Assembly (NCBI GenBank): GCA_000004985.1 | Contig: GG738921.1 | Length of the DNA stretch: 64,000 bases | Reading direction: 5' to 3' (one strand) | DNA from: Naegleria gruberi | Lineage: Eukaryota | In this document: positions 13,841 through 61,375 of the stretch, piece after piece | Layout of the letters: every line of letters begins with the position of its first letter | Position numbering within the stretch: the first letter of the stretch is position 1 | The notes under the pieces: generated by a model | Told to the model about the DNA's origin: nothing | Databases searched by the model: none | The model's input: the letters and a program-made list of their open reading frames with translations, nothing else | Made by a program: the position numbers and the translations under genes

Positions 13841-16716
13841 ATGGCAAACTCCTTTTCTTTCATCTTGTTTGCCATCTTGGTTTTGAATTGGGCCTTGTTA
13901 GCCAATTGTAATTTGACTTTTTCACAACAAACATTCAACACTCTCCTCAACTCAACCCAAACTTCAACTCTATCACTGACAATGTACATGGGAGGTGGAA
14001 CAACCATCAAAAACAGTAACAACAGCACATGTGGAATGTCTGTGGATAATCCATGTACAAACTTTAATCAATTATTATTAACTTTTAATTGGACACTCTT
14101 TAGTCAATTTGAGAATTTCACAAAAGCAACATCGGCAGGTGAAAGAAACGTTCACTTGAAGATACTGATACTTCCAGATGGCAGTATTTTCTGTCCTATC
14201 AATCCAGTTAATTTATCTCCTTCAATGAATTATCATTTAGAATTTACGAAACTAGTCGAATCATCAACAATAACACCCATCTTGACCTGCCTCAACACAC
14301 AAGATGGAAATGGCATTTCCATTCCTNNNNNNNNNNNNNNNNNNNNNNNNNNNNNNNNNNNNNNNNNNNNNNNNNNNNNNNNNNNNNNNNNNNNNNNNNN
14401 NNNNNNNNNNNNNNNNNNNNNNNNNNNNNNNNNNNNNNNNNNNNNNNNNNNNNNNNNNNNNNNNNNNNNNNNNNNNNNNNNNNNNNNNNNNNNNNNNNNN
14501 NNNNNNNNNNNNNNNNNNNNNNNNNNNNNNNNNNNNNNNNNNNNNNNNNNNNNNNNNNNNNNNNNNNNNNNNNNNNNNNNNNNNNNNNNNNNNNNNNNNN
14601 NNNNNNNNNNNNNNNNNNNNNNNNNNNNNNNNNNNNNNNNNNNNNNNNNNNNNNNNNNNNNNNNNNNNNNNNNNNNNNNNNNNNNNNNNNNNNNNNNNNN
14701 NNNNNNNNNNNNNNNNNNNNNNNNNNNNNNNNNNNNNNNNNNNNNNNNNNNNNNNNNNNNNNNNNNNNNNNNNNNNNNNNNNNNNNNNNNNNNNNNNNNN
14801 NNNNNNNNNNNNNNNNNNNNNNNNNNNNNNNNNNNNNNNNNNNNNNNNNNNNNNNNNNNNNNNNNNNNNNNNNNNNNNNNNNNNNNNNNNNNNNNNNNNN
14901 NNNNNNNNNNNNNNNNNNNNNNNNNNNNNNNNNNNNNNNNNNNNNNNNNNNNNNNNNNNNNNNNNNNNNNNNNNNNNNNNNNNNNNNNNNNNNNNNNNNN
15001 NNNNNNNNNNNNNNNNNNNNNNNNNNNNNNNNNNNNNNNNNNNNNNNNNNNNNNNNNNNNNNNNNNNNNNNNNNNNNNNNNNNNNNNNNNNNNNNNNNNN
15101 NNNNNNNNNNNNNNNNNNNNNNNNNNNNNNNNNNNNNNNNNNNNNNNNNNNNNNNNNNNNNNNNNNNNNNNNNNNNNNNNNNNNNNNNNNNNNNNNNNNN
15201 NNNNNNNNNNNNNNNNNNNNNNNNNNNNNNNNNNNNNNNNNNNNNNNNNNNNNNNNNNNNNNNNNNNNNNNNNNNNNNNNNNNNNNNNNNNNNNNNNNNN
15301 NNNNNNNNNNNNNNNNNNNNNNNNNNNNNNNNNNNNNNNNNNNNNNNNNNNNNNNNNNNNNNNNNNNNNNNNNNNNNNNNNNNNNNNNNNNNNNNNNNNN
15401 NNNNNNNNNNNNNNNNNNNNNNNNNNNNNNNNNNNNNNNNNNNNNNNNNNNNNNNNNNNNNNNNNNNNNNNNNNNNNNNNNNNNNNNNNNNNNNNNNNNN
15501 NNNNNNNNNNNNNNNNNNNNTTGGAATAGCATTAGGTTTTGGAATATTCTTTGTGTGGAAAATTGTAAAGAAATTGAGAAAACTGAAAAGTAAGGAGAAG
15601 GCAGAGAAACAAATTGAAGAAAAACTTTTAGACAAGCGACTTATTTTCAATATGAATGACGAGGAGGATGAATATTATGAGGGCTCCACACCAAATATTG
15701 AAAGAAGCAAATCATCTTATGGGAAAGTATCTGAAAAGGAGTTAGTTTCTTCATTGATTGACAGTGAAAAGAAGAAATCAAAACATTCTTTCAGTTTTTC
15801 ATCCTCTTACATTATTCCAATTGAAGACATATCAATTATTAAAAAGATTGGAGAAGGAGGCGCAGCTAATGTATATTATGGTACATGGACCAATATTAAA
15901 GTGGCTATCAAGTCACTCAAGATTGACAGTTTTGATGATGATTTTGAGAATGAAGCAGCCATCCTCAGTTTAATTAGACATCCAAACATTCTGACATTCT
16001 ATGGAGTATGTTTGACTGATAAGAGTCGATATATTGTGACTGAATATATGGAAAATGGCTCTCTAGACAGGTATATATTTTTGAATAAGAACAGAGCATT
16101 GAATATTGACCTATTCAAATCAAATATTGGAATTTTGTGTGGAATTGTGGATGGTATGCAATATTTACACTCTCTTAAACCTTCAATTATTCACAGAGAT
16201 TTGAAATCGAGTAATATATTGTTGGACGAAAGAAATACTCCAAAAGTTTCTGATTTTGGTCTTGTTAAAGTATTGGGAAACAATACAATCAGTCAAATTA
16301 CAAAAGGAATTGGTACAGTGTATTATTTAGCTCCAGAAACATTCATTGCTGAACATCAAATTGAAAATAAGGAAGAGGCAACCAAGTTGGACATTTACAG
16401 TTTTGCAATAATCATGTGGGAATTATTCTTTCGAATGAGTCCTTATCATCATGTGAAAAATCCATTCAAAGTGCCTCAAATGGTTGTCAATGGAGAAAGA
16501 CCTCAAATTCCCTTCAATATTGAAAATGATACGGAAATCAAAGAATGGCTTTCAATTCAAGCATTGGAAATTTCATCGTCTGACAATTCTTTCATTAATG
16601 GTATTAAGAAATACTTCTCACTCATTCTCCAATGTTGGAATCAAAATCCATTACAAAGACCTACATTCCTGACAATTAGAAGAGAATTGGATGAGATTTA
16701 CAATCTAATCGGTTGA
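13841..16716 (+). CDS. Receptor-like TKL-family Ser/Thr kinase (signal peptide, ectodomain, TM, kinase), interrupted by an assembly gap
   Basis: ATG at 13841 follows an A-run. The start MANSFSFILFAILVLNWALLANC is signal-peptide-like, and the ectodomain is rich in N-glycosylation sites up to the gap. After the gap the frame from 15523 reads GIALGFGIFFVW (TM) then KIVKKLRKLK, followed by a kinase domain with IGEGGAANVYYG, VAIKSLK, HRDLKSSNILLD, SDFGL and YYLAPE, to the stop at 16716. Confidence 0.8.
14327..15520. other. Assembly gap (1194 N)
   Basis: A run of N in the sequence. It lies inside the receptor-kinase gene. Confidence 1.
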
Positions 16717-44373: not shown

Positions 44374-45513
44374 TTAGTTGTATTGATGTTTTGCAGGTGA
44401 TGCCATTCGAATAGGAGCATCTGGATTCAATTGATAATCTGTTTGTAAGAGTGGATACAGTGTAATTGTCTTTCTGGTACACATTGAAATAATTGGGAAA
44501 TACATGACAGATTGTGAGACTAAATCCTGAGTTCCAGTAATTGCTGATGCAATGTGAATTCCATTCTTGAAAAAGTTGACCTGTTTGGCATCGTAATCTA
44601 TAATGACAGCAAATCGATCACCAACAGAGATCTTTCCAACAAATTCAGAACCTACAGTTCCATCAATAAAGTCGCCAAACATTTTGAATGATTTGTTTTC
44701 GAGAATGTAACCAACTCCAGAGTTTCTTTCAACGAATTGAGCTATGGATTTGTCATTATTGAAATCTTCATAATCAGTTCCAATACCAAATGCTATTGTT
44801 AATTGATGGAGGTCAATGTGTCAATATTTCAAATATAGTAAATTTCCAATATACTTACCAACATTCCATGCATTGCCACACAAGAAATATTCTTCAATAA
44901 CCATCTCATATCCTTTAAATCCAAAGTAAAATTGAGGAGATAGTTCTGATAAATCCTTAATCATTGGATATTTGGATGCTTTAAATGCATACCAAGTTGT
45001 AACGTTAATATTTCCAACAGTTCTCTCTCTATTAATGACCTTTTGTTCCTCAACATCAGATGCCTTGTCAAAACACAACTTTTTCATTTGCATCAACACT
45101 GAACTATACTTGATTGCATTTCCCTCTCTCAAAAAGAGCATTTCCCTCAAATATCGATCCAATTCCTTCTCATTCATTGAATTGACCAACGAAACATCCA
45201 AACCACTACTAATAATCTTTGAATTCACTTCATCAATAAATCCATTCATCATACCCAACAATCTATGTTTCCAAATAGTATTTCTATACGCAGCAACATC
45301 ATCCTCTTCATCATCACGATAATTGGAAGAATTCAAACAACCTCCCAAAACCAAATGATAATAAAATCGATTCAAACAAGCAACATTCATCAATGTATTC
45401 TCACAACAATACCACAGAACATTTACTTGATTATCGAGTGGGAGTTCCTGGAATGGAATTTTGTATAACCATTCACCATCAGCAATTTCCAATGTTGTTG
45501 TTGTTGTTGACAT
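44374..45513 (-). CDS. F-box-like / SPRY domain protein (357 aa, 2 exons)
   Basis: Exons are 45513-44859 / 44792-44374, with a 66-nt GTAAGT...TAG intron in phase 1. The N-terminus ELPLDNQVNVLWYCCENTLMNVACLNRFYYHLV is F-box-like. The C-terminal SPRY-like core is YFGFKGYE ... CGNAWNVGAFGIGTDYE ... GDRFAVIIDYDAKQVNFFKNG. Confidence 0.7.
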
Positions 45514-46366: not shown

Positions 46367-47677
46367 ATGCTTTCTTCCAATCATCAACAAGTTCTCTTCC
46401 TCTCCAACCAATCCTCCTCGATGGAAATTGACGGAGTTTTTGAAAAATGTAATCTTGTCTCTCTCCATCAATTAACAAATTTGGAAATTAAGAAAATTTG
46501 TCCCTCCTCGAGAAATTCATTTATTTGGACAAGTGAGGAAGATCGAATTTTCAAAGTGGGTCGCTCGAATGTTCCAATAGAATCTGAAATTCAATACTGG
46601 AAGAATCCACTCAATTGTTTCGAATGGAAATGGAAAGAAAGAGTGAATAGATATTTGAGAATGAATAAGGAAATGGCATCTATTGTGGATGGTAGAGTTT
46701 TAAATTTGAAGAATATTTATGCATCGTGGTATGCTGTCTTTTTAGAGTTGGATGATGGAGTTTTCTTTGCTGTCAATGATCAAGATGAAAGAATGTGGAA
46801 ATTGGAAAAGGAAATTAAAATGTTTGTAACCTCGCCATGTAGTAATCATGCTTTGGTGGTATTGGAAGATGATGAGCTCATTAATATTGACAGTTTATTC
46901 TTTCAGATGCCTTCTTCTGAAACAGATCAAATTGATGGAACAATTGTAAAGGCAGCAACATCTGCCAAGTCAGATATCATTTTCACAGATAAGAATAAGA
47001 TGTTTTGTAGAGGGGATAATCGATTCAATGTTCAAAATGGTACTAGATCTAATGGATTTTATTCCTATGTGAGAACTCCTTTCGAAAATGAAAGTCTAGT
47101 TCAACAAGTCAAATGTGGACTTTTTCACACAGCTGTCATGTTGGAAAATAAGAGTATTTATGTGTGTGGACAAAACAAATTCAATCAATGTGGAGTTTCC
47201 TCAAAGGAAGATCAATCCTTTACAAAAATTCAATTCTCTTCAGATATAATTCCAGAGAGTTTGTATTGTGGAAGTGATTCGACTGGTTTCACCACCAAAT
47301 TCTCAACCTCCCTGTATGTGTTTGGTGGCATGTTGAAGAATTTAGATTTGAATGCAGTGGAACATGTCCAACAGATGCAAATTACTCAAAAGAAGGGAAA
47401 TAATCAACAACAACCAACAGAATCAGTTTCGTTTGAACAAGTTTCAAGATTTGAACCTTTCGAATTGATTTCAGGAGTGAAGGGTATTAAACTATCACTC
47501 AAATCCATTCCAAATGCTGATTTCAATTCGGTAGTGTTTGGAGATTCGTACATGTTGGTCTTTAAGAGAAATGAGCTAATTGGAAAAACATTGAATTATA
47601 TTCATTTGAATATGAAACGTCTTGGCTTGCAAATTGATAAGCACTATTCAGATCTTGTCTTTCACACTGAATGTTAA
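46367..47677 (+). CDS. RCC1-like repeat (beta-propeller) protein
   Basis: Single 436-aa ORF after an A-run. Blades: MFCRGDNRFNVQNG, KCGLFHTAVMLENKSIYVCGQNKFNQCG, SLYVFGG. Confidence 0.6.
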   Translation: MLSSNHQQVLFLSNQSSSMEIDGVFEKCNLVSLHQLTNLEIKKICPSSRNSFIWTSEEDRIFKVGRSNVPIESEIQYWKNPLNCFEWKWKERVNRYLRMNKEMASIVDGRVLNLKNIYASWYAVFLELDDGVFFAVNDQDERMWKLEKEIKMFVTSPCSNHALVVLEDDELINIDSLFFQMPSSETDQIDGTIVKAATSAKSDIIFTDKNKMFCRGDNRFNVQNGTRSNGFYSYVRTPFENESLVQQVKCGLFHTAVMLENKSIYVCGQNKFNQCGVSSKEDQSFTKIQFSSDIIPESLYCGSDSTGFTTKFSTSLYVFGGMLKNLDLNAVEHVQQMQITQKKGNNQQQPTESVSFEQVSRFEPFELISGVKGIKLSLKSIPNADFNSVVFGDSYMLVFKRNELIGKTLNYIHLNMKRLGLQIDKHYSDLVFHTEC

Positions 47678-47788: not shown

Positions 47789-48543
47789 TTAATACAATTT
47801 ACATTCTGATAGAGTGGCATTGTATGATCCACATCTTGGAATTAAATTTTCATCCCATCCCATGCAACTGTTTGGAATATACAAACAAGATTGTGCAGGA
47901 ATACATCTCTCTGGCGAAAGTGTGTACAAATTACTTGCCTTTCCAACAATTGTTCTTCCATTAACAACTGTAGTTCCATAAAAACATTGTTGTCCAGGAT
48001 AACCAGTTCCAAAAACATAAAACAAAGCAACAGCACAACCAAAAACAAAGAGAATTGGAGTTAAAATCATCAAAATACGTAATTTAGGTTCCAGATAGGA
48101 TGTTCTTTGCCAATAAATCAAAATTCCAAGAGGAACCAATTGAATTATCAAGTAAACCATCATGGCCAAATTACCCCATAATTTCAAATCCGATTCTCTG
48201 TATGTAAATACACCCAACAAGATGAATGTTACCAAACCAATTAATATAACAATTGCTGATGAAGTATATGTAGCTATTTTAATCTATCCATATATATATA
48301 CATATAATAATTATGATCACATCATCATTATCATCCACATATAATAATAACAATAATAACAATAATATCAAACAAATATATCAAACATTAATAGCAATCA
48401 TCCGATCAATATTTAAATTATCATCATCATCAATAATAATATTAATAATACAACAATAATAAATGTAAATATGATCCAATCTATATAACAAAATAATAAC
48501 ATACAGCCTTGCTATTCTCATCACCATAAAGTGGATTCTCCAT
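47789..48543 (-). CDS. Small multi-pass membrane protein with a Cys-rich C-terminal domain (177 aa, 2 exons)
   Basis: ATG at 48543 follows an A-run. Exon 1 is 48543-48505 (MENPLYGDENSKA). A 221-nt very AT-rich GTATGT...TAG intron follows, and exon 2 (48283-47789) is in phase 0. There are three hydrophobic helices and then a C-rich tail (CFYG ... CIPAQSCLYIPNSC ... C ... C). Confidence 0.55.
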
Positions 48544-48773: not shown

Positions 48774-49817
48774 ATGTATCAAGATGCATGGGTGGAGGTG
48801 ATGCAATTTTTAGAGCCGATTGATGTGTTGGCGTCTCTACTCACTCTCAATAGAAATTTGTATGAATGGATTAGAAAATCTTCGTGTTTAACCTTTGATG
48901 ATATTTGTAATTATTGTGCTGGAGATGAAAATTCATCCCGAGGCTTGAAAATTTCATTTCATCATCAAATTGATGATCATGATAATTCAATGATTGATAA
49001 TGTAATTGATGATTATTATGTAAAATTGGTTGGAAATACTAAATATATTATTCGGTTGTACTTGGCAAAATTGGCCAAACGATTGGGAAATCAAAATCCT
49101 GTGGAGAGATCTGAGAAAGAAATTTCAAAAATTCTGAATTCATACGAATTGAAATTATTGAATTTTTATAGATCTGTGTTTTTTCCTCAATTTAAATATC
49201 AGGAGAGTGGAACGATTAATTATTTTGTTTTGGGAGATACAGGAATAGGAAAGACAACTTTCAGATATTTTATATGTTATGGAAAGAAAAAAGATAGTTA
49301 TTATGGAGCTACTGGAATTGATTTTCTTATCAAACGGTTTCAAATTGCTGATGAGATGAAATGTGAACATAAGATTTTTGACACTGCTGGTCAAGAAAGG
49401 TTCTTTGCTCCAAACATGATGGTGAAAAGACATGCAAGAAACGATAGGATGGGATTTCTTCTTTGTTTTTCAATGGTTCATCTAGTGTCGTTTGAGAAAT
49501 TGGATGAATGGTTTTCTGCTGTTAAGGAACATGCCCATCCAGAAATTTCAAATTATGGATTAATTGTTGGATTACATCCCCAGAATATTCGTTGGGTCGA
49601 AACTCCTAGCGAACCTCAGATCTGTGTTAAAGATACTGTAAAGAAATCGTATGCTCTTGGTAAATCAGTGTTTTTTGAAGCGAATTGCAATGAGTCCAAA
49701 CAAGTATTTGCTCCTTTTTGGTTTATTCAATTACAATGCACTTATTTCAATAATTGTAAAGAGAAAGACAAGGATCTAACACAAGTTAATAATTCTTGGA
49801 ACTGCTCAATATATTAA
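48774..49817 (+). CDS. F-box-like N-terminus fused to a Rab/Ras-like GTPase domain with a degenerate G4
   Basis: Single 347-aa ORF after an A-run. The N-terminus WVEVMQFLEPIDVLASLLTLNRNLYEWI is F-box-like. The GTPase has G1 LGDTGIGKTT, G2 ATGIDF and G3 FDTAGQERF. The NKxD position reads GLHPQN and the G5 position reads EANC. Confidence 0.65.
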   Translation: MYQDAWVEVMQFLEPIDVLASLLTLNRNLYEWIRKSSCLTFDDICNYCAGDENSSRGLKISFHHQIDDHDNSMIDNVIDDYYVKLVGNTKYIIRLYLAKLAKRLGNQNPVERSEKEISKILNSYELKLLNFYRSVFFPQFKYQESGTINYFVLGDTGIGKTTFRYFICYGKKKDSYYGATGIDFLIKRFQIADEMKCEHKIFDTAGQERFFAPNMMVKRHARNDRMGFLLCFSMVHLVSFEKLDEWFSAVKEHAHPEISNYGLIVGLHPQNIRWVETPSEPQICVKDTVKKSYALGKSVFFEANCNESKQVFAPFWFIQLQCTYFNNCKEKDKDLTQVNNSWNCSIY

Positions 49818-49888
49818 AATAACATGAAATTCGCAAAATTTACAATCCTCATGTAATGTACATTTGAAATAAATTAAGGTTTTAAGAT

Positions 49889-51670
49889 TTATTGGAATGG
49901 TTCCAATTCAATTTCGAAAACTGAAACTGGTGTCTTCAAACCAAAGTTAGAAGCAACTTCTGGATGAATAATACCGAAAATACCAATCTTCTTGCCCTTG
50001 TAGAAGATATCAGCTTGTCTACCTGGCAAGAAGCTAATATCGTTAGATGGGAAAATTGAGAAACAGTGCTTATCAACAGATTGGCTATGTTCAACTTCGA
50101 ATGGAACAGCTAAAACTTCCATAACTCTGTCAACCAAACCGTGAATCAGTTCCAAACCCGATGTAGCAGATGAGAAGAGAGCAGCAAGTCTTCTATTATT
50201 CTTAGCACCAACATCCTTAGAATCATCAACTAAAATAACATCACCACATTCGAACAATTTGATTGGCAATGGCAATGACTTGTTGCTTTGCAAGGTCTTT
50301 AACAAACCTGGAATCAAACTAATTCTAGCAGTCTTGAATTCGAATGGACATGGTTCAGCAACAGCAATAGCAGTCTTACCATCGTTGACTCTGTTCATGT
50401 ATTTAAAGTTTTCTTCATCGTTACAGAGAATCAAGGACAAAACTTCAGTATATCCTGACATGGCGAGTTCAAGACGCACCATTTCTGACAATTGGTTCAA
50501 TTCATTTTCCTTACCAACAGTTGAAGACTTTGGGAAAGTAATTGGGATATTGTTGTAACCATGAGCAATGGCAACATCTTCCATAATATCACAAGCATGT
50601 AAAACGTCTGAACGAGTTGGTGGAGCAAGAACTCTCAATTCATTATTTTGAGTGACAGTAGCATTCAATTGCATCTTTGTCAAAATTTCTGCAATTTGTT
50701 GAGCAGATAAATTCAAACCAATTCTACTATTAATATAGTCGCTATTTGTAGTGAATTCAACATTATCAAGAATTGGAGTAGGTTCATCCTTTGATTGAGT
50801 CTTATCTTCATATACAATTTCAACTTGTTCAACTGTGAATGGAACAGAGCAATGTTCAGAGAACATGGTAACAACAGTATTCAAGACAACCTTAGCCTTT
50901 GTCAAATCAGTTGCAGTACATTCAATGAAAACATTCTTTGTAGACATTTTGATCTTTGAGTGATCTCCGTTAATAATTGGTGGCAAAGACAAAACTCTTC
51001 TCTTAGCATCTAAAATAACTGGATAAACTGGACTATCCTTGATAATCTTAGTGTAAGGGGACAAGTGCTTCATTTCACTTCCCTTTTTTTCAATAAAAGC
51101 GAAAAGTTCGTCAGCATCCATTAATTCAGTTCTATCCAAAGGAATGAATTTGATTTCTTTTGGTGGAAGAGCTTCATATGTGAAAGGACCTTCAATAACA
51201 TCCAAATCGTGAGTACCAATAGCAACGAGGGTTCTCTTTCTACAAATATTTTGATGAAGCTTTTCTTGTAAATCAATGAAACTATTGTAGGCATCTTCGG
51301 TGAAGGTGATATTTCTCAAGACAGCACCAACAACAAATTTACGGATTGATCCAGTTTCCTTTTTCACGTTAATCTTTAACAATTGTTTGGTTTTGGAATT
51401 ATCAATTTTATAGGTTGGAGCATCTTGACGACCGAGGAAAATGTTCAAAGCTCTGCTCAAGCCTTCTTCACAGAGTAAATCGTATCTGTTGGCTGGGATT
51501 TCAATCTTGTAGATGACTTCATCGGAGAGTTTGCTTGTATCCTTTGCAGAACCCAATTCCTTTTCCTTCATCAATCTTTCAGAGGTAACATCATCCAATT
51601 CAATACCAAAATCAAAACAAAGTTGCTCAAAATCGGCATCGGCTATAGGAGATATTTTTTTAATTTTCAT
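49889..51670 (-). CDS. FARSB: Phenylalanyl-tRNA synthetase beta subunit (cytoplasmic type)
   Basis: 593-aa ORF. DFEQLCFDFGIELDDVTSE ... YKIEIPANRYDLLCEEGLSRAL and colinear B3/4 and B5 regions are typical of eukaryotic PheRS beta. The N-terminus is about 10 aa shorter than usual, so a missed upstream start or exon is possible. Confidence 0.9.
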   Translation of the reverse strand: MKIKKISPIADADFEQLCFDFGIELDDVTSERLMKEKELGSAKDTSKLSDEVIYKIEIPANRYDLLCEEGLSRALNIFLGRQDAPTYKIDNSKTKQLLKINVKKETGSIRKFVVGAVLRNITFTEDAYNSFIDLQEKLHQNICRKRTLVAIGTHDLDVIEGPFTYEALPPKEIKFIPLDRTELMDADELFAFIEKKGSEMKHLSPYTKIIKDSPVYPVILDAKRRVLSLPPIINGDHSKIKMSTKNVFIECTATDLTKAKVVLNTVVTMFSEHCSVPFTVEQVEIVYEDKTQSKDEPTPILDNVEFTTNSDYINSRIGLNLSAQQIAEILTKMQLNATVTQNNELRVLAPPTRSDVLHACDIMEDVAIAHGYNNIPITFPKSSTVGKENELNQLSEMVRLELAMSGYTEVLSLILCNDEENFKYMNRVNDGKTAIAVAEPCPFEFKTARISLIPGLLKTLQSNKSLPLPIKLFECGDVILVDDSKDVGAKNNRRLAALFSSATSGLELIHGLVDRVMEVLAVPFEVEHSQSVDKHCFSIFPSNDISFLPGRQADIFYKGKKIGIFGIIHPEVASNFGLKTPVSVFEIELEPFQ

Positions 51671-60404: not shown

Positions 60405-61375
60405 ATGCCACAACATGTCCATCATCACTCCCTCTCACCTTCAAGACCAGTCGTCGTTATTGATAATGGCTCGGGAATGATTAAGGTAGGATTTTCCTGT
60501 AGTGATTCTCCCAGAGCCATATTTCCAACAATAGTAGGGCATAAAAAAGAGTCATCAGATCAAAAGAAGGAAACAACCAACAATGATCTCAATAGTATCG
60601 GATCATCATTTGTTGGAGAGATGGCAATAGCTCATCGAGAATTATTGGACATAAAAAGTCCCATGGAAAATGGAATAATTTCAAATTTTGATGATATGGA
60701 AAAGATTTGTTATCATCTCTATCCGGAGTTCTTGTCACAGAACCAAGTTAGAATCCAAAGTTGGTGAGAGAAAAAACAACAGAAATATTTTTTGAAAAGT
60801 TTAAGGCCAATCAGTGATGGGACTTTGTTCGAGTGCCAGATCAGATGGTGTTGTTTTGGATGCTGGTTATACGAAATCATATGCTGTTCCAATTCTTGAA
60901 GGAATTGCATTGCCACATGCCATTCAGGTGATGNNNNNNNNNNNNNNNNNNNNNNNNNNNNNNNNNNNNNNNNNNNNNNNNNNTTCACAAAGAGGAGGTT
61001 TGAATTGTCAGATGGAAGCAAAGTGAATTTTGGAGAGGAATTAATGTCATGTCCAGAAGCTCTATTCAACCCACAGTTAATCAAAGAAGGAGAAGGAATT
61101 CACAAGATTCTCGTCAATTCCATTTTCAATTCAAATGCAGAAATCACAAGACAACTCTTTGCCAATATTGTCCTTGTCGGTGTCTCAACAATGTTTGAAG
61201 GTTTTCCCAATCATTGAATTGGCTCCTCTCTCTGTAAAAGTGAAAATCCTTTCATTCCCCGAAAGAAAACTCTTCCTGGTTTGGAGGTTCAATTACGAGC
61301 TCTCTTTCAGAATTCCACAATATGGCCATTCACAAAAAGGAATATGAAGAAGTTGGACCTAGAATTGTAATGTAG
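60405..61375 (+). pseudogene. Actin-related protein gene with an in-frame stop, at least 4 frame changes and an internal gap (probable pseudogene)
   Basis: Actin-colinear pieces lie in different frames: VVIDNGSGMIKVGF ... FPTIVG (from 60405); VLVTEPS*NPKLVREKTTEIFFEKF (TAG at 60749-60751); DGVVLDAGYTKSYAVPILEGIALPHAI; [gap]; FELSDGSKVNFGEELMSCPEALFNP ... LVGVSTMFEGF; [18 protein letters not shown]; [33 protein letters not shown]. Confidence 0.6.
60934..60983. other. Assembly gap (50 N)
   Basis: A run of N inside the actin-related locus. Confidence 1.

Follow-up and report, generated by a model that had tools for sequence, protein, structure and literature searches.

We describe a gene of Naegleria gruberi whose predicted product joins a probable divergent F-box at the N-terminus to a degenerate Rab-like GTPase (G) domain and a C-terminal CaaX box. 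The gene lies in a 64,000-nucleotide stretch of contig GG738921.1 (assembly GCA_000004985.1), and this whole stretch is referred to below as the window. Judged by alignment with canonical Rabs, every member of the family to which this protein belongs has lost the NKxD motif, the SAK motif, and the switch-I Thr, and the G1 and G3 motifs have decayed in a patchy manner. We consider the chances to be about even that the protein serves as a prenylated adaptor of a Skp1-Cul1-F-box (SCF) ubiquitin ligase, with a pseudo-GTPase-like domain as its recognition module.

Several components of this description have been published. The analysis of the Ras superfamily in N. gruberi and N. fowleri by Herman et al. 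(2021, BMC Biol 19:142; PMC8296547) already covers the gene, its N-terminal extension and the interpretation of that extension as an F-box, the CaaX box, and the Naegleria-specific expansion of the family. In addition to the motif losses stated above, we contribute a map of constraint along the protein, a confident structural model, and the hypothesis that a pseudo-GTPase serves as a module of an SCF ligase.

A Rab-like G domain that lacks guanine-recognition motifs

The gene spans positions 48774..49817 (+) as a complete, single-exon unit of 347 codons plus a stop codon in the list of open reading frames (ORFs). Its product is identical over its full length (100%) to the N. gruberi protein XP_002669889.1 (EFC37145.1; D2W196_NAEGR), which databases annotate as a "rab family small GTPase", and this identity marks the window as nuclear DNA of N. 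gruberi. An in-frame TGA is located 18 nt upstream of the ATG, and therefore the N-terminus is complete. The start of the protein, M-x-Q-D-x-W, is common to all paralogues.

The Rab-derived G domain occupies residues 145-325 (49206..49748, +) and has the small-GTPase (Ras) fold. Its best matches by both sequence and structure are Rabs (Ypt6, Rab3, and Rab6), and structure searches with the whole AlphaFold2 (AF2) model retrieve G domains only. The Pfam G-domain match covers profile positions 3-106 of 162 and ends before G4. We located the individual G motifs with a MAFFT L-INS-i alignment that included canonical Rabs and with a HMMER alignment to Ypt6.

Two of these motifs are intact. The P-loop (G1) reads GDTGIGKT at residues 154-161 (49233..49256, +), fits the pattern GxxxxGK[ST], and aligns with the P-loop of Rabs; the longer string GDTGIGKTT quoted in the initial annotation covers residues 154-162. 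G3 reads DTAGQE at residues 203-208 (49380..49397, +) and includes the Gln at the catalytic position. The RF that follows is also retained, giving DTAGQERF at residues 203-210. Although G1, G2, and G3 had all been described as good, this wording is justified only for the first and third, which are canonical, and G2 is approximate. In the switch I region (ATGIDF, residues 179-184, 49308..49325, +), MAFFT alignment with Rabs places Ala179 in the column of the invariant Thr, and Thr180 falls one residue later (YYGATGIDF versus YAPTIGIDF). The Rab-like IGxDF signature is kept as TGIDF.

G4 and G5 are replaced. The equivalent of G4 is GLHPQN at residues 266-271 (49569..49586, +), which takes the place of GNKxD in both the MAFFT and the HMMER alignments, and the equivalent of G5 is EANC at residues 302-305 (49677..49688, +), which takes the place of ETSAK. 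A search of the whole protein for the pattern [NT][KQ]x[DE] gave no occurrence. Because GLHPQ falls on GNKxD and EANC falls on ETSAK when the protein is aligned with Rabs, the loss of G4 and G5 is not an alignment artefact, and no member of the family regains a canonical version of either motif upon proper alignment. Both replacements had been proposed in the initial annotation of this fusion, and all of the strings that it quoted are present where it placed them. When the RabF motifs were compared by eye, the equivalents of YYRGA and LVYDIT were found not to be kept (HARND and LCFSMV, respectively). At the position of helix alpha-5, residues 313-325 (49710..49748, +) carry the family signature APFWFIQLQCTYF, whose near-invariant form is PFWFxQLQxTYF, and AF2 predicts a helix at these residues with a predicted local distance difference test score (pLDDT) of ~95.

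Pseudo-GTPases have a Ras fold in which at least one G motif is missing and do not bind or do not hydrolyse nucleotide. Of these traits the protein shows the first, as it has neither the G2 Thr nor G4 nor G5. Known pseudo-GTPases and atypical Rab-like proteins that offer a comparison include IFT22/RabL5, RabL3, CENP-M, and the pG domains of p190RhoGAP. With its P-loop and DTAGQE, the copy in the window may still bind phosphate or nucleotide in a weak or base-relaxed manner.

A Naegleria family with uneven constraint

When 1.84 billion representative proteins were searched with a HMMER profile of the family, full-length relatives came from Naegleria only, and all other matches in this set are restricted to the G domain. 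Further N. gruberi members recovered by this search are P0002, P0003, P0009, P0010, P0012, and P0156, and two more are given as corrected gene models in Table S8 of the earlier study (PMC8296547). The family thus includes nine N. gruberi copies, counting the one in the window, and the N. lovaniensis protein XP_044545630.1 (P0019). P0019 is the only member found outside N. gruberi. It stops at residue 248, partway through the G domain (...CFSVSNRKSLLR), which suggests that the gene model is truncated or that this copy has become a pseudogene. When a word-indexed set of 5.8 billion proteins was searched with the N-terminal profile, P0019 alone was returned; known paralogues were missed as well, and the silence of this search on N. 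fowleri, Willaertia, and others is therefore weak evidence.

Paralogues share 24-45% identity, and this similarity is distributed unevenly. Mean pairwise identity among nine paralogues reaches 0.485 in the F-box (residues 3-36) and 0.427 in the linker helices (residues 87-136), compared with 0.273 in the G domain. Within the latter, the alpha-5 motif is kept better than any of the G motifs. Throughout the family, G4 has a form like G[LF][HY][PS] and is never NKxD, G5 is variable (ESD, EVD, EID, QAN, and EVN) and is never SAK, and no member has Thr in the switch-I column. Of the ten members, the window protein and XP_002681067 (DTSGEE) alone retain DxxG; P0009, for example, has ETNGVE. The P-loop Lys or Ser/Thr has been lost in several members, including P0002 (GEAGVGTC) and ACER01000495 (GMPIFGPS), and the variants GDRSIGKK and GDAFVGKK also occur.

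As read from these alignments, constraint sits on the F-box, the linker, the alpha-5 motif, and the CaaX box, while the nucleotide-binding elements drift. Given that these parts are conserved between paralogues that share only 24-45% identity, they appear to be subject to purifying selection. Such a pattern would be expected of a protein whose docking part and scaffold are fixed and whose G-like module varies. Moreover, because NKxD, SAK, and the switch-I Thr have been lost family-wide, and G1 and G3 have decayed in most members, the G domain seems to be evolving as a pseudo-GTPase-like module for protein binding rather than as a switch specific for guanine nucleotides.

A different reading holds that the protein works at the membrane as an anchored nucleotide switch whose base specificity is relaxed or altered, and that the F-box mainly serves SCF-dependent self-turnover and not the recruitment of other substrates. 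The intact P-loop and DTAGQE of the window copy, with its Gln, would suit such a switch, and auto-ubiquitylation is common among F-box proteins. Likewise, the F-box of TbFRP, a related architecture discussed below, was suggested by its authors to be tied to rapid turnover of that protein (PMC3593210). However, no features of the family are conserved less well than the nucleotide motifs. DxxG is missing from most paralogues and the P-loop Lys from some, although the F-box, the linker, and the CaaX box have been kept in these proteins, and even the window copy has no G2 Thr, G4, or G5. We thus regard a nucleotide switch as unlikely.

Alternatively, the eroded G motifs could mark a gene without function that birth-and-death evolution has left to decay and that is turning into a pseudogene. 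Consistent with this view, the earlier study reports disrupted coding sequences in some members of these clades, for which birth-and-death evolution was inferred (PMC8296547). Set against decay are the intact ORF of 347 codons and the conservation of the F-box, the linker, the alpha-5 motif, and the CaaX box among paralogues that have otherwise diverged so far. Furthermore, the window copy is the least decayed by alignment, with the best-preserved G1 and G3 of the family. These features make a dying gene very improbable.

The corrected model of XP_002677491.1 in Table S8 (PMC8296547), a Pfam-tagged member of another Naegleria F-box-Rab subgroup, carries GLKSD at G4 and ELSSK at G5. An hhalign comparison of our family with this protein aligned the G domain only (92%), with GLKSD on GLHPQ, and detected no common N-terminus. 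GLKSD, in which Asn has changed to Leu and K-S-D has been kept, may represent an intermediate stage of G4 decay or a case of convergence.

An F-box-like module and a helical linker

We are fairly confident that the N-terminus is a divergent F-box. This module, the most conserved part of the family, comprises residues 1-36 (48774..48881, +), is indicated by Pfam, hhalign, and AF2, and includes WVEVMQFLEPIDVLASLLTLNRNLYEWI at residues 6-33. When the first 50-65 residues were run alone, the F-box family PF00646 was the sole Pfam family matched. Rather than failing F-box profiles outright, the segment scored 15.5-16.6 bits, below the gathering score of 20.5 bits, in the correct register (residues 4-38 on profile positions 7-40 of 43). 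PF00646 was also matched by five of eight family N-termini at E<=10, always in this same register. At 23.0 bits (E=7e-5), the N-terminus of the N. lovaniensis member exceeds this threshold, and the protein is called "F-box domain-containing protein" in UniRef. Its N-terminus (DDVWIEIFSFLEPLDIIAS) is homologous to that of the window protein (QDAWVEVMQFLEPIDVLAS).

As a second approach, we used a reference F-box alignment composed of two protist F-boxes and the sequences of Skp2, FBXW7, beta-TrCP, Cdc4, TIR1, cyclin F, and FBXO2. When searched against PDB sequences, this alignment retrieves F-box proteins only, many of which are absent from the alignment itself. The family N-terminus matched it by hhalign with 58% probability (E=1e-4) in the expected register, in which Met1-Tyr2 stand at the position of the canonical Leu-Pro and the aligned block begins with Tyr2 opposite the F-box Pro. 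Later hydrophobic positions of the F-box are kept (V9, F12/L13, I16, V18/L19, L25, and L29). AF2 predicts short helices at residues 3-10, 15-21, and 27-36 (pLDDT 82-95), and three short helices are the layout expected of an F-box. The F-box-like character that the initial annotation had assigned from residue spacing is therefore supported, with the reservations given below, by profile evidence from the window protein and its homologue.

The module is followed by a variable segment at residues 37-86 (48882..49031, +), where mean pairwise identity is 0.20, paralogues differ by indels, and the pLDDT is 68-79 at residues 51-80. A conserved helical linker at residues 87-144 (49032..49205, +) then connects the F-box to the G domain. 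It carries the motifs GNxKYFIRLYLLKL and ELKLLNFYRSVF, and AF2 places helices at residues 89-104, 114-120, and 123-136, with a pLDDT of ~87-95 over residues 81-140 and 80 over residues 141-150. Searches of Pfam and of PDB sequences found no relatives of the linker. The profile of residues 27-109 gave a single marginal PDB match to ZCCHC8 (7z4y; E=0.035), which most likely arose by chance. This match spans window positions 48852-49100 and is centred on GNxKYFxxLxLxKLG.

The C-terminus and a model of the whole protein

The protein ends in ...WNCSIY, where CSIY (residues 344-347, 49803..49814, +) forms a CaaX box with Cys at position -4 and is a predicted prenylation site. This is a single-Cys CaaX box of the Ras/Rho type, and a double-Cys motif of the Rab type (CC or CxC) is not present at the C-terminus. 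CaaX boxes occur in eight of the nine N. gruberi members (CSIY, CSLM, CSLL, CIIQ, CTVL, CSLQ, CLLQ, and CGLM); P0003 has CFI instead.

A structural model was computed with AF2 from a 48-row alignment of the family and Rabs; an input of only three paralogues had given a pLDDT of 34. For the whole protein, the pLDDT is 85 and the predicted template modeling score (pTM) is 0.87, and this pTM indicates a single compact body in the model. In Cdc4, Fbw7, and beta-TrCP, the F-box is joined to the substrate domain by a rigid helical linker, an arrangement analogous to the compact body predicted here.

Several observations weigh against the SCF adaptor interpretation. On the side of the G domain, some GTPases without canonical G4 and G5, such as IFT22/RabL5, still bind GTP, and the term "pseudo-GTPase" is accordingly unproven for this protein. 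On the side of the N-terminus, the Pfam F-box match is below threshold for the window protein and most paralogues, the hhalign probability drops to 31% when a longer query profile is used, and the family N-terminal profile retrieves no F-box protein among PDB sequences. Likewise, the canonical Leu-Pro, which forms the Skp1-contacting start of an F-box, is missing. Finally, the high pTM could mean that the N-terminus is packed on the G domain in the modeled structure and is not free to engage Skp1.

These same N-terminal observations would be explained if the first 140 residues were a lineage-specific helical look-alike of an F-box that caps or regulates the Rab-like domain, or that mediates oligomerisation, with no link to SCF ligases. 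The rows for this subgroup in Table S8 also carry no "F-box" tag (PMC8296547). Set against a look-alike are the fact that the F-box is the only Pfam family matched, in one register and by most members examined, the passing score and UniRef label of the N. lovaniensis protein, and the length and spacing of the three predicted helices, which are those expected. On balance, we believe that a look-alike has a small chance of being correct, comparable to that of the nucleotide switch.

A possible mechanism at membranes

If the SCF adaptor interpretation holds, the protein would be farnesylated or geranylgeranylated and thereby seated on a membrane. The F-box would dock on Skp1-Cul1-Rbx1, and the helical linker would hold the Rab-like domain rigidly in place, where it would serve recognition or regulation within a membrane-bound SCF ligase.

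A more specific and quite improbable version of this mechanism can also be considered for the CaaX subgroup. In this version, the members would be membrane-anchored SCF receptors whose Rab-shaped pseudo-GTPase domains function as decoy Rabs, capturing Rab-binding proteins for ubiquitylation. The targets could be endogenous effectors, GTPase-activating proteins, or guanine nucleotide exchange factors (GEFs), or they could be Rab-targeting effectors of intracellular bacteria that prey on amoebae, such as Legionella. If so, the expansion of the family, its birth-and-death turnover, and its fast-evolving G-like surface would reflect an arms race between the organism and its environment.

Comparison with previous findings and related systems

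XP_002669889.1, which is the gene in the window, and its paralogues are listed together as "Rab" in Table S8 of Herman et al. (PMC8296547). Additional File 4 of the same work describes three Rab-like subgroups that occur only in Naegleria and that have a conserved N-terminal extension, which some members allow to be recognised as an F-box; a CaaX box is conserved in one of the subgroups, and the clades are described as evolving by birth and death. Furthermore, Ras-superfamily proteins in Naegleria are reported to carry the F-box more often than any other accessory domain, and "GTPase-dependent ubiquitination" is proposed for this genus. In contrast to the analysis presented here, that work gives neither a structural model nor a region-by-region view of conservation, and its searchable passages contain no mention of the loss of NKxD and SAK, the loss of the G2 Thr, or the decay of G1 and G3.

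The initial annotation had called the architecture unusual, which is an overstatement for Naegleria given how frequent F-boxes are among its Ras-superfamily proteins (PMC8296547), and FYVE-F-box-GTPases are also known from Euglenozoa (PMC3593210). One of these proteins, TbFRP, is a FYVE-F-box-Rab-like GTPase, and its authors detected no orthologue of it in N. gruberi (PMC3593210). Both proteins come from discobid protists, and TbFRP has an F-box N-terminal to a Rab-like G domain as well as a membrane-targeting device, as the Naegleria protein probably does. Their nearest G domains are also similar, with TbFRP closest to Rab18/Ypt6 (PMC3593210) and the Naegleria protein closest to Ypt6/Rab6. 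However, the Naegleria protein lacks the FYVE domain of TbFRP (Pfam, E<=1) and starts with the F-box-like segment, and its CaaX box would provide membrane targeting instead. No FRP-like protein was found among the best matches of the family profile. The best matches outside the family (P0013-P0022, E 1e-20 to 1e-12) were considered as FRP-like relatives and rejected, as they are tandem multi-Rab gene models with neither FYVE nor F-box.

Parallels can also be drawn with small GTPases that recruit cullin-RING ligases. As proposed here for the Naegleria protein, Rab40 is a small GTPase fused to a docking module for a cullin-RING ligase and selects a substrate or partner. The G domain of Rab40 has canonical motifs and is GTP-regulated, whereas G4 and G5 are lost from the Naegleria protein. 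The docking modules also differ, being a probable N-terminal F-box (Cul1) in the Naegleria protein and a C-terminal SOCS box (Cul5) in Rab40. No SOCS or BTB domain was matched by Pfam in the Naegleria protein, whose C-terminus consists of the alpha-5 helix, a short tail, and the CaaX box. RhoBTB, which combines a Rho domain with BTB, is an adaptor for Cul3. This RhoBTB-Cul3 system is cited in PMC8296547, and the SOCS box of Rab40 has been found to recruit Cul5 for the ubiquitylation of Rab40 partners (PMC8129794, PMC10509765).

The combination of an F-box with a C-terminal CaaX box, as predicted here, is also present in FBXL2 and FBXO10, which are not homologous to the Naegleria protein beyond the F-box. 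The substrate modules of these two proteins are leucine-rich repeats or a CASH/beta-helix domain and do not have a Ras fold. Both are prenylated F-box proteins whose CaaX box anchors an SCF ligase at particular membranes (PMC9988375, PMC11042265).

A fusion of similar composition is encoded by a transcript of the amoebozoan Echinamoeba exundans (EP01122_P015764, P0049). The N-terminus of this protein (LPDDCIVHM...) resembles an F-box, with a match to Pfam F-box-like that is below threshold (E=0.008), and a Rab domain follows ~100 residues later. Unlike the Naegleria family, P0049 has canonical motifs throughout its Rab domain (GDTGVGKT, WDTAGRERF, GTKSD, and ETSAK; Ras E=1e-52), and it has no CaaX box and neither the linker nor the alpha-5 motifs of the Naegleria proteins. 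P0049 is probably an independent F-box-Rab fusion in Amoebozoa, outside Discoba, and therefore such fusions appear to recur.

Genomic setting

An RCC1-like gene had been noted 1.1 kb upstream of the Rab-like gene, and it is indeed present. This 436-residue ORF (46367-47677, +) contains RCC1 repeats (RCC1_2 E=8.8e-10) and ends 1,097 bp 5' of the ATG on the same strand. The repeats are restricted to the middle of the ORF (residues 190-330), and the match to the RLD profile is partial, covering positions 141-274 of 363 with 51 bits against a cut-off of 150. The ORF may therefore encode a partial propeller or represent a piece of a larger gene model. Adjacency on one strand and genuine RCC1 repeats might suggest that the two genes form a functional pair in which the RCC1-like protein is a dedicated exchange factor or partner of the Rab-like protein. 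However, gene neighbourhood in eukaryotes says little about function, a protein without guanine-recognition motifs would hardly need a GEF, and the propeller is matched only in part. We consider this pairing to be extremely unlikely.

Downstream, the gene for the beta subunit of phenylalanyl-tRNA synthetase (49889-51670, -; B1, B3_4, B5, and core domains by Pfam) is convergent with the Rab-like gene. The stop codons of the two genes are only 71 nt apart (49818-49888), and their 3' untranslated regions must therefore be very short or overlapping. Between the RCC1-like gene and the Rab-like gene lies an ORF of 148 residues (47789-48235, -), at most a candidate gene, that has hydrophobic, transmembrane-like segments and only weak Pfam matches (DUF2678, E=0.003).

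Only a single copy of the Rab-like gene was found in the window, with no second family copy present. The N-terminus (ELPLDNQVNVLWYCCENTLMNVACLNRFYYHLV) of another ORF (44821-45513, -; 230 residues) resembles an F-box by eye, and this candidate was rejected because Pfam gave no F-box match even at E<=10. The DNA of the window is AT-rich, with about 29-37% G+C per 2-kb window when the assembly gap is excluded, and its ORFs are long and uninterrupted. Runs of N that mark assembly gaps are located at 14327-15520 and 60934-60983, and an apparent dip to 13.5% G+C at 14-16 kb is due to these N runs. A tblastn search against phages gave no match.

Implications

The immediate value of these findings is modest, in that the gene and its architecture have already been catalogued and no member of the family is known beyond a single genus. 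They do allow a sharper annotation, with "F-box-like, degenerate Rab-like, and CaaX" replacing "rab family small GTPase", and they document that G4 and G5 have been lost across the family. If the proposed function as an SCF adaptor is correct, F-box fusions in Naegleria would couple modules shaped like small GTPases directly to Cul1 ligases at membranes. They would then constitute a third independent case of a GTPase used as an E3 adaptor, after Rab40-Cul5 and RhoBTB-Cul3. The family would also offer a natural example for the study of pseudo-enzyme evolution, in which one module slides into a pseudo-GTPase while the part that docks on the ligase remains fixed. For Naegleria itself, these proteins would provide a possible handle on the biology of membranes and ubiquitin.

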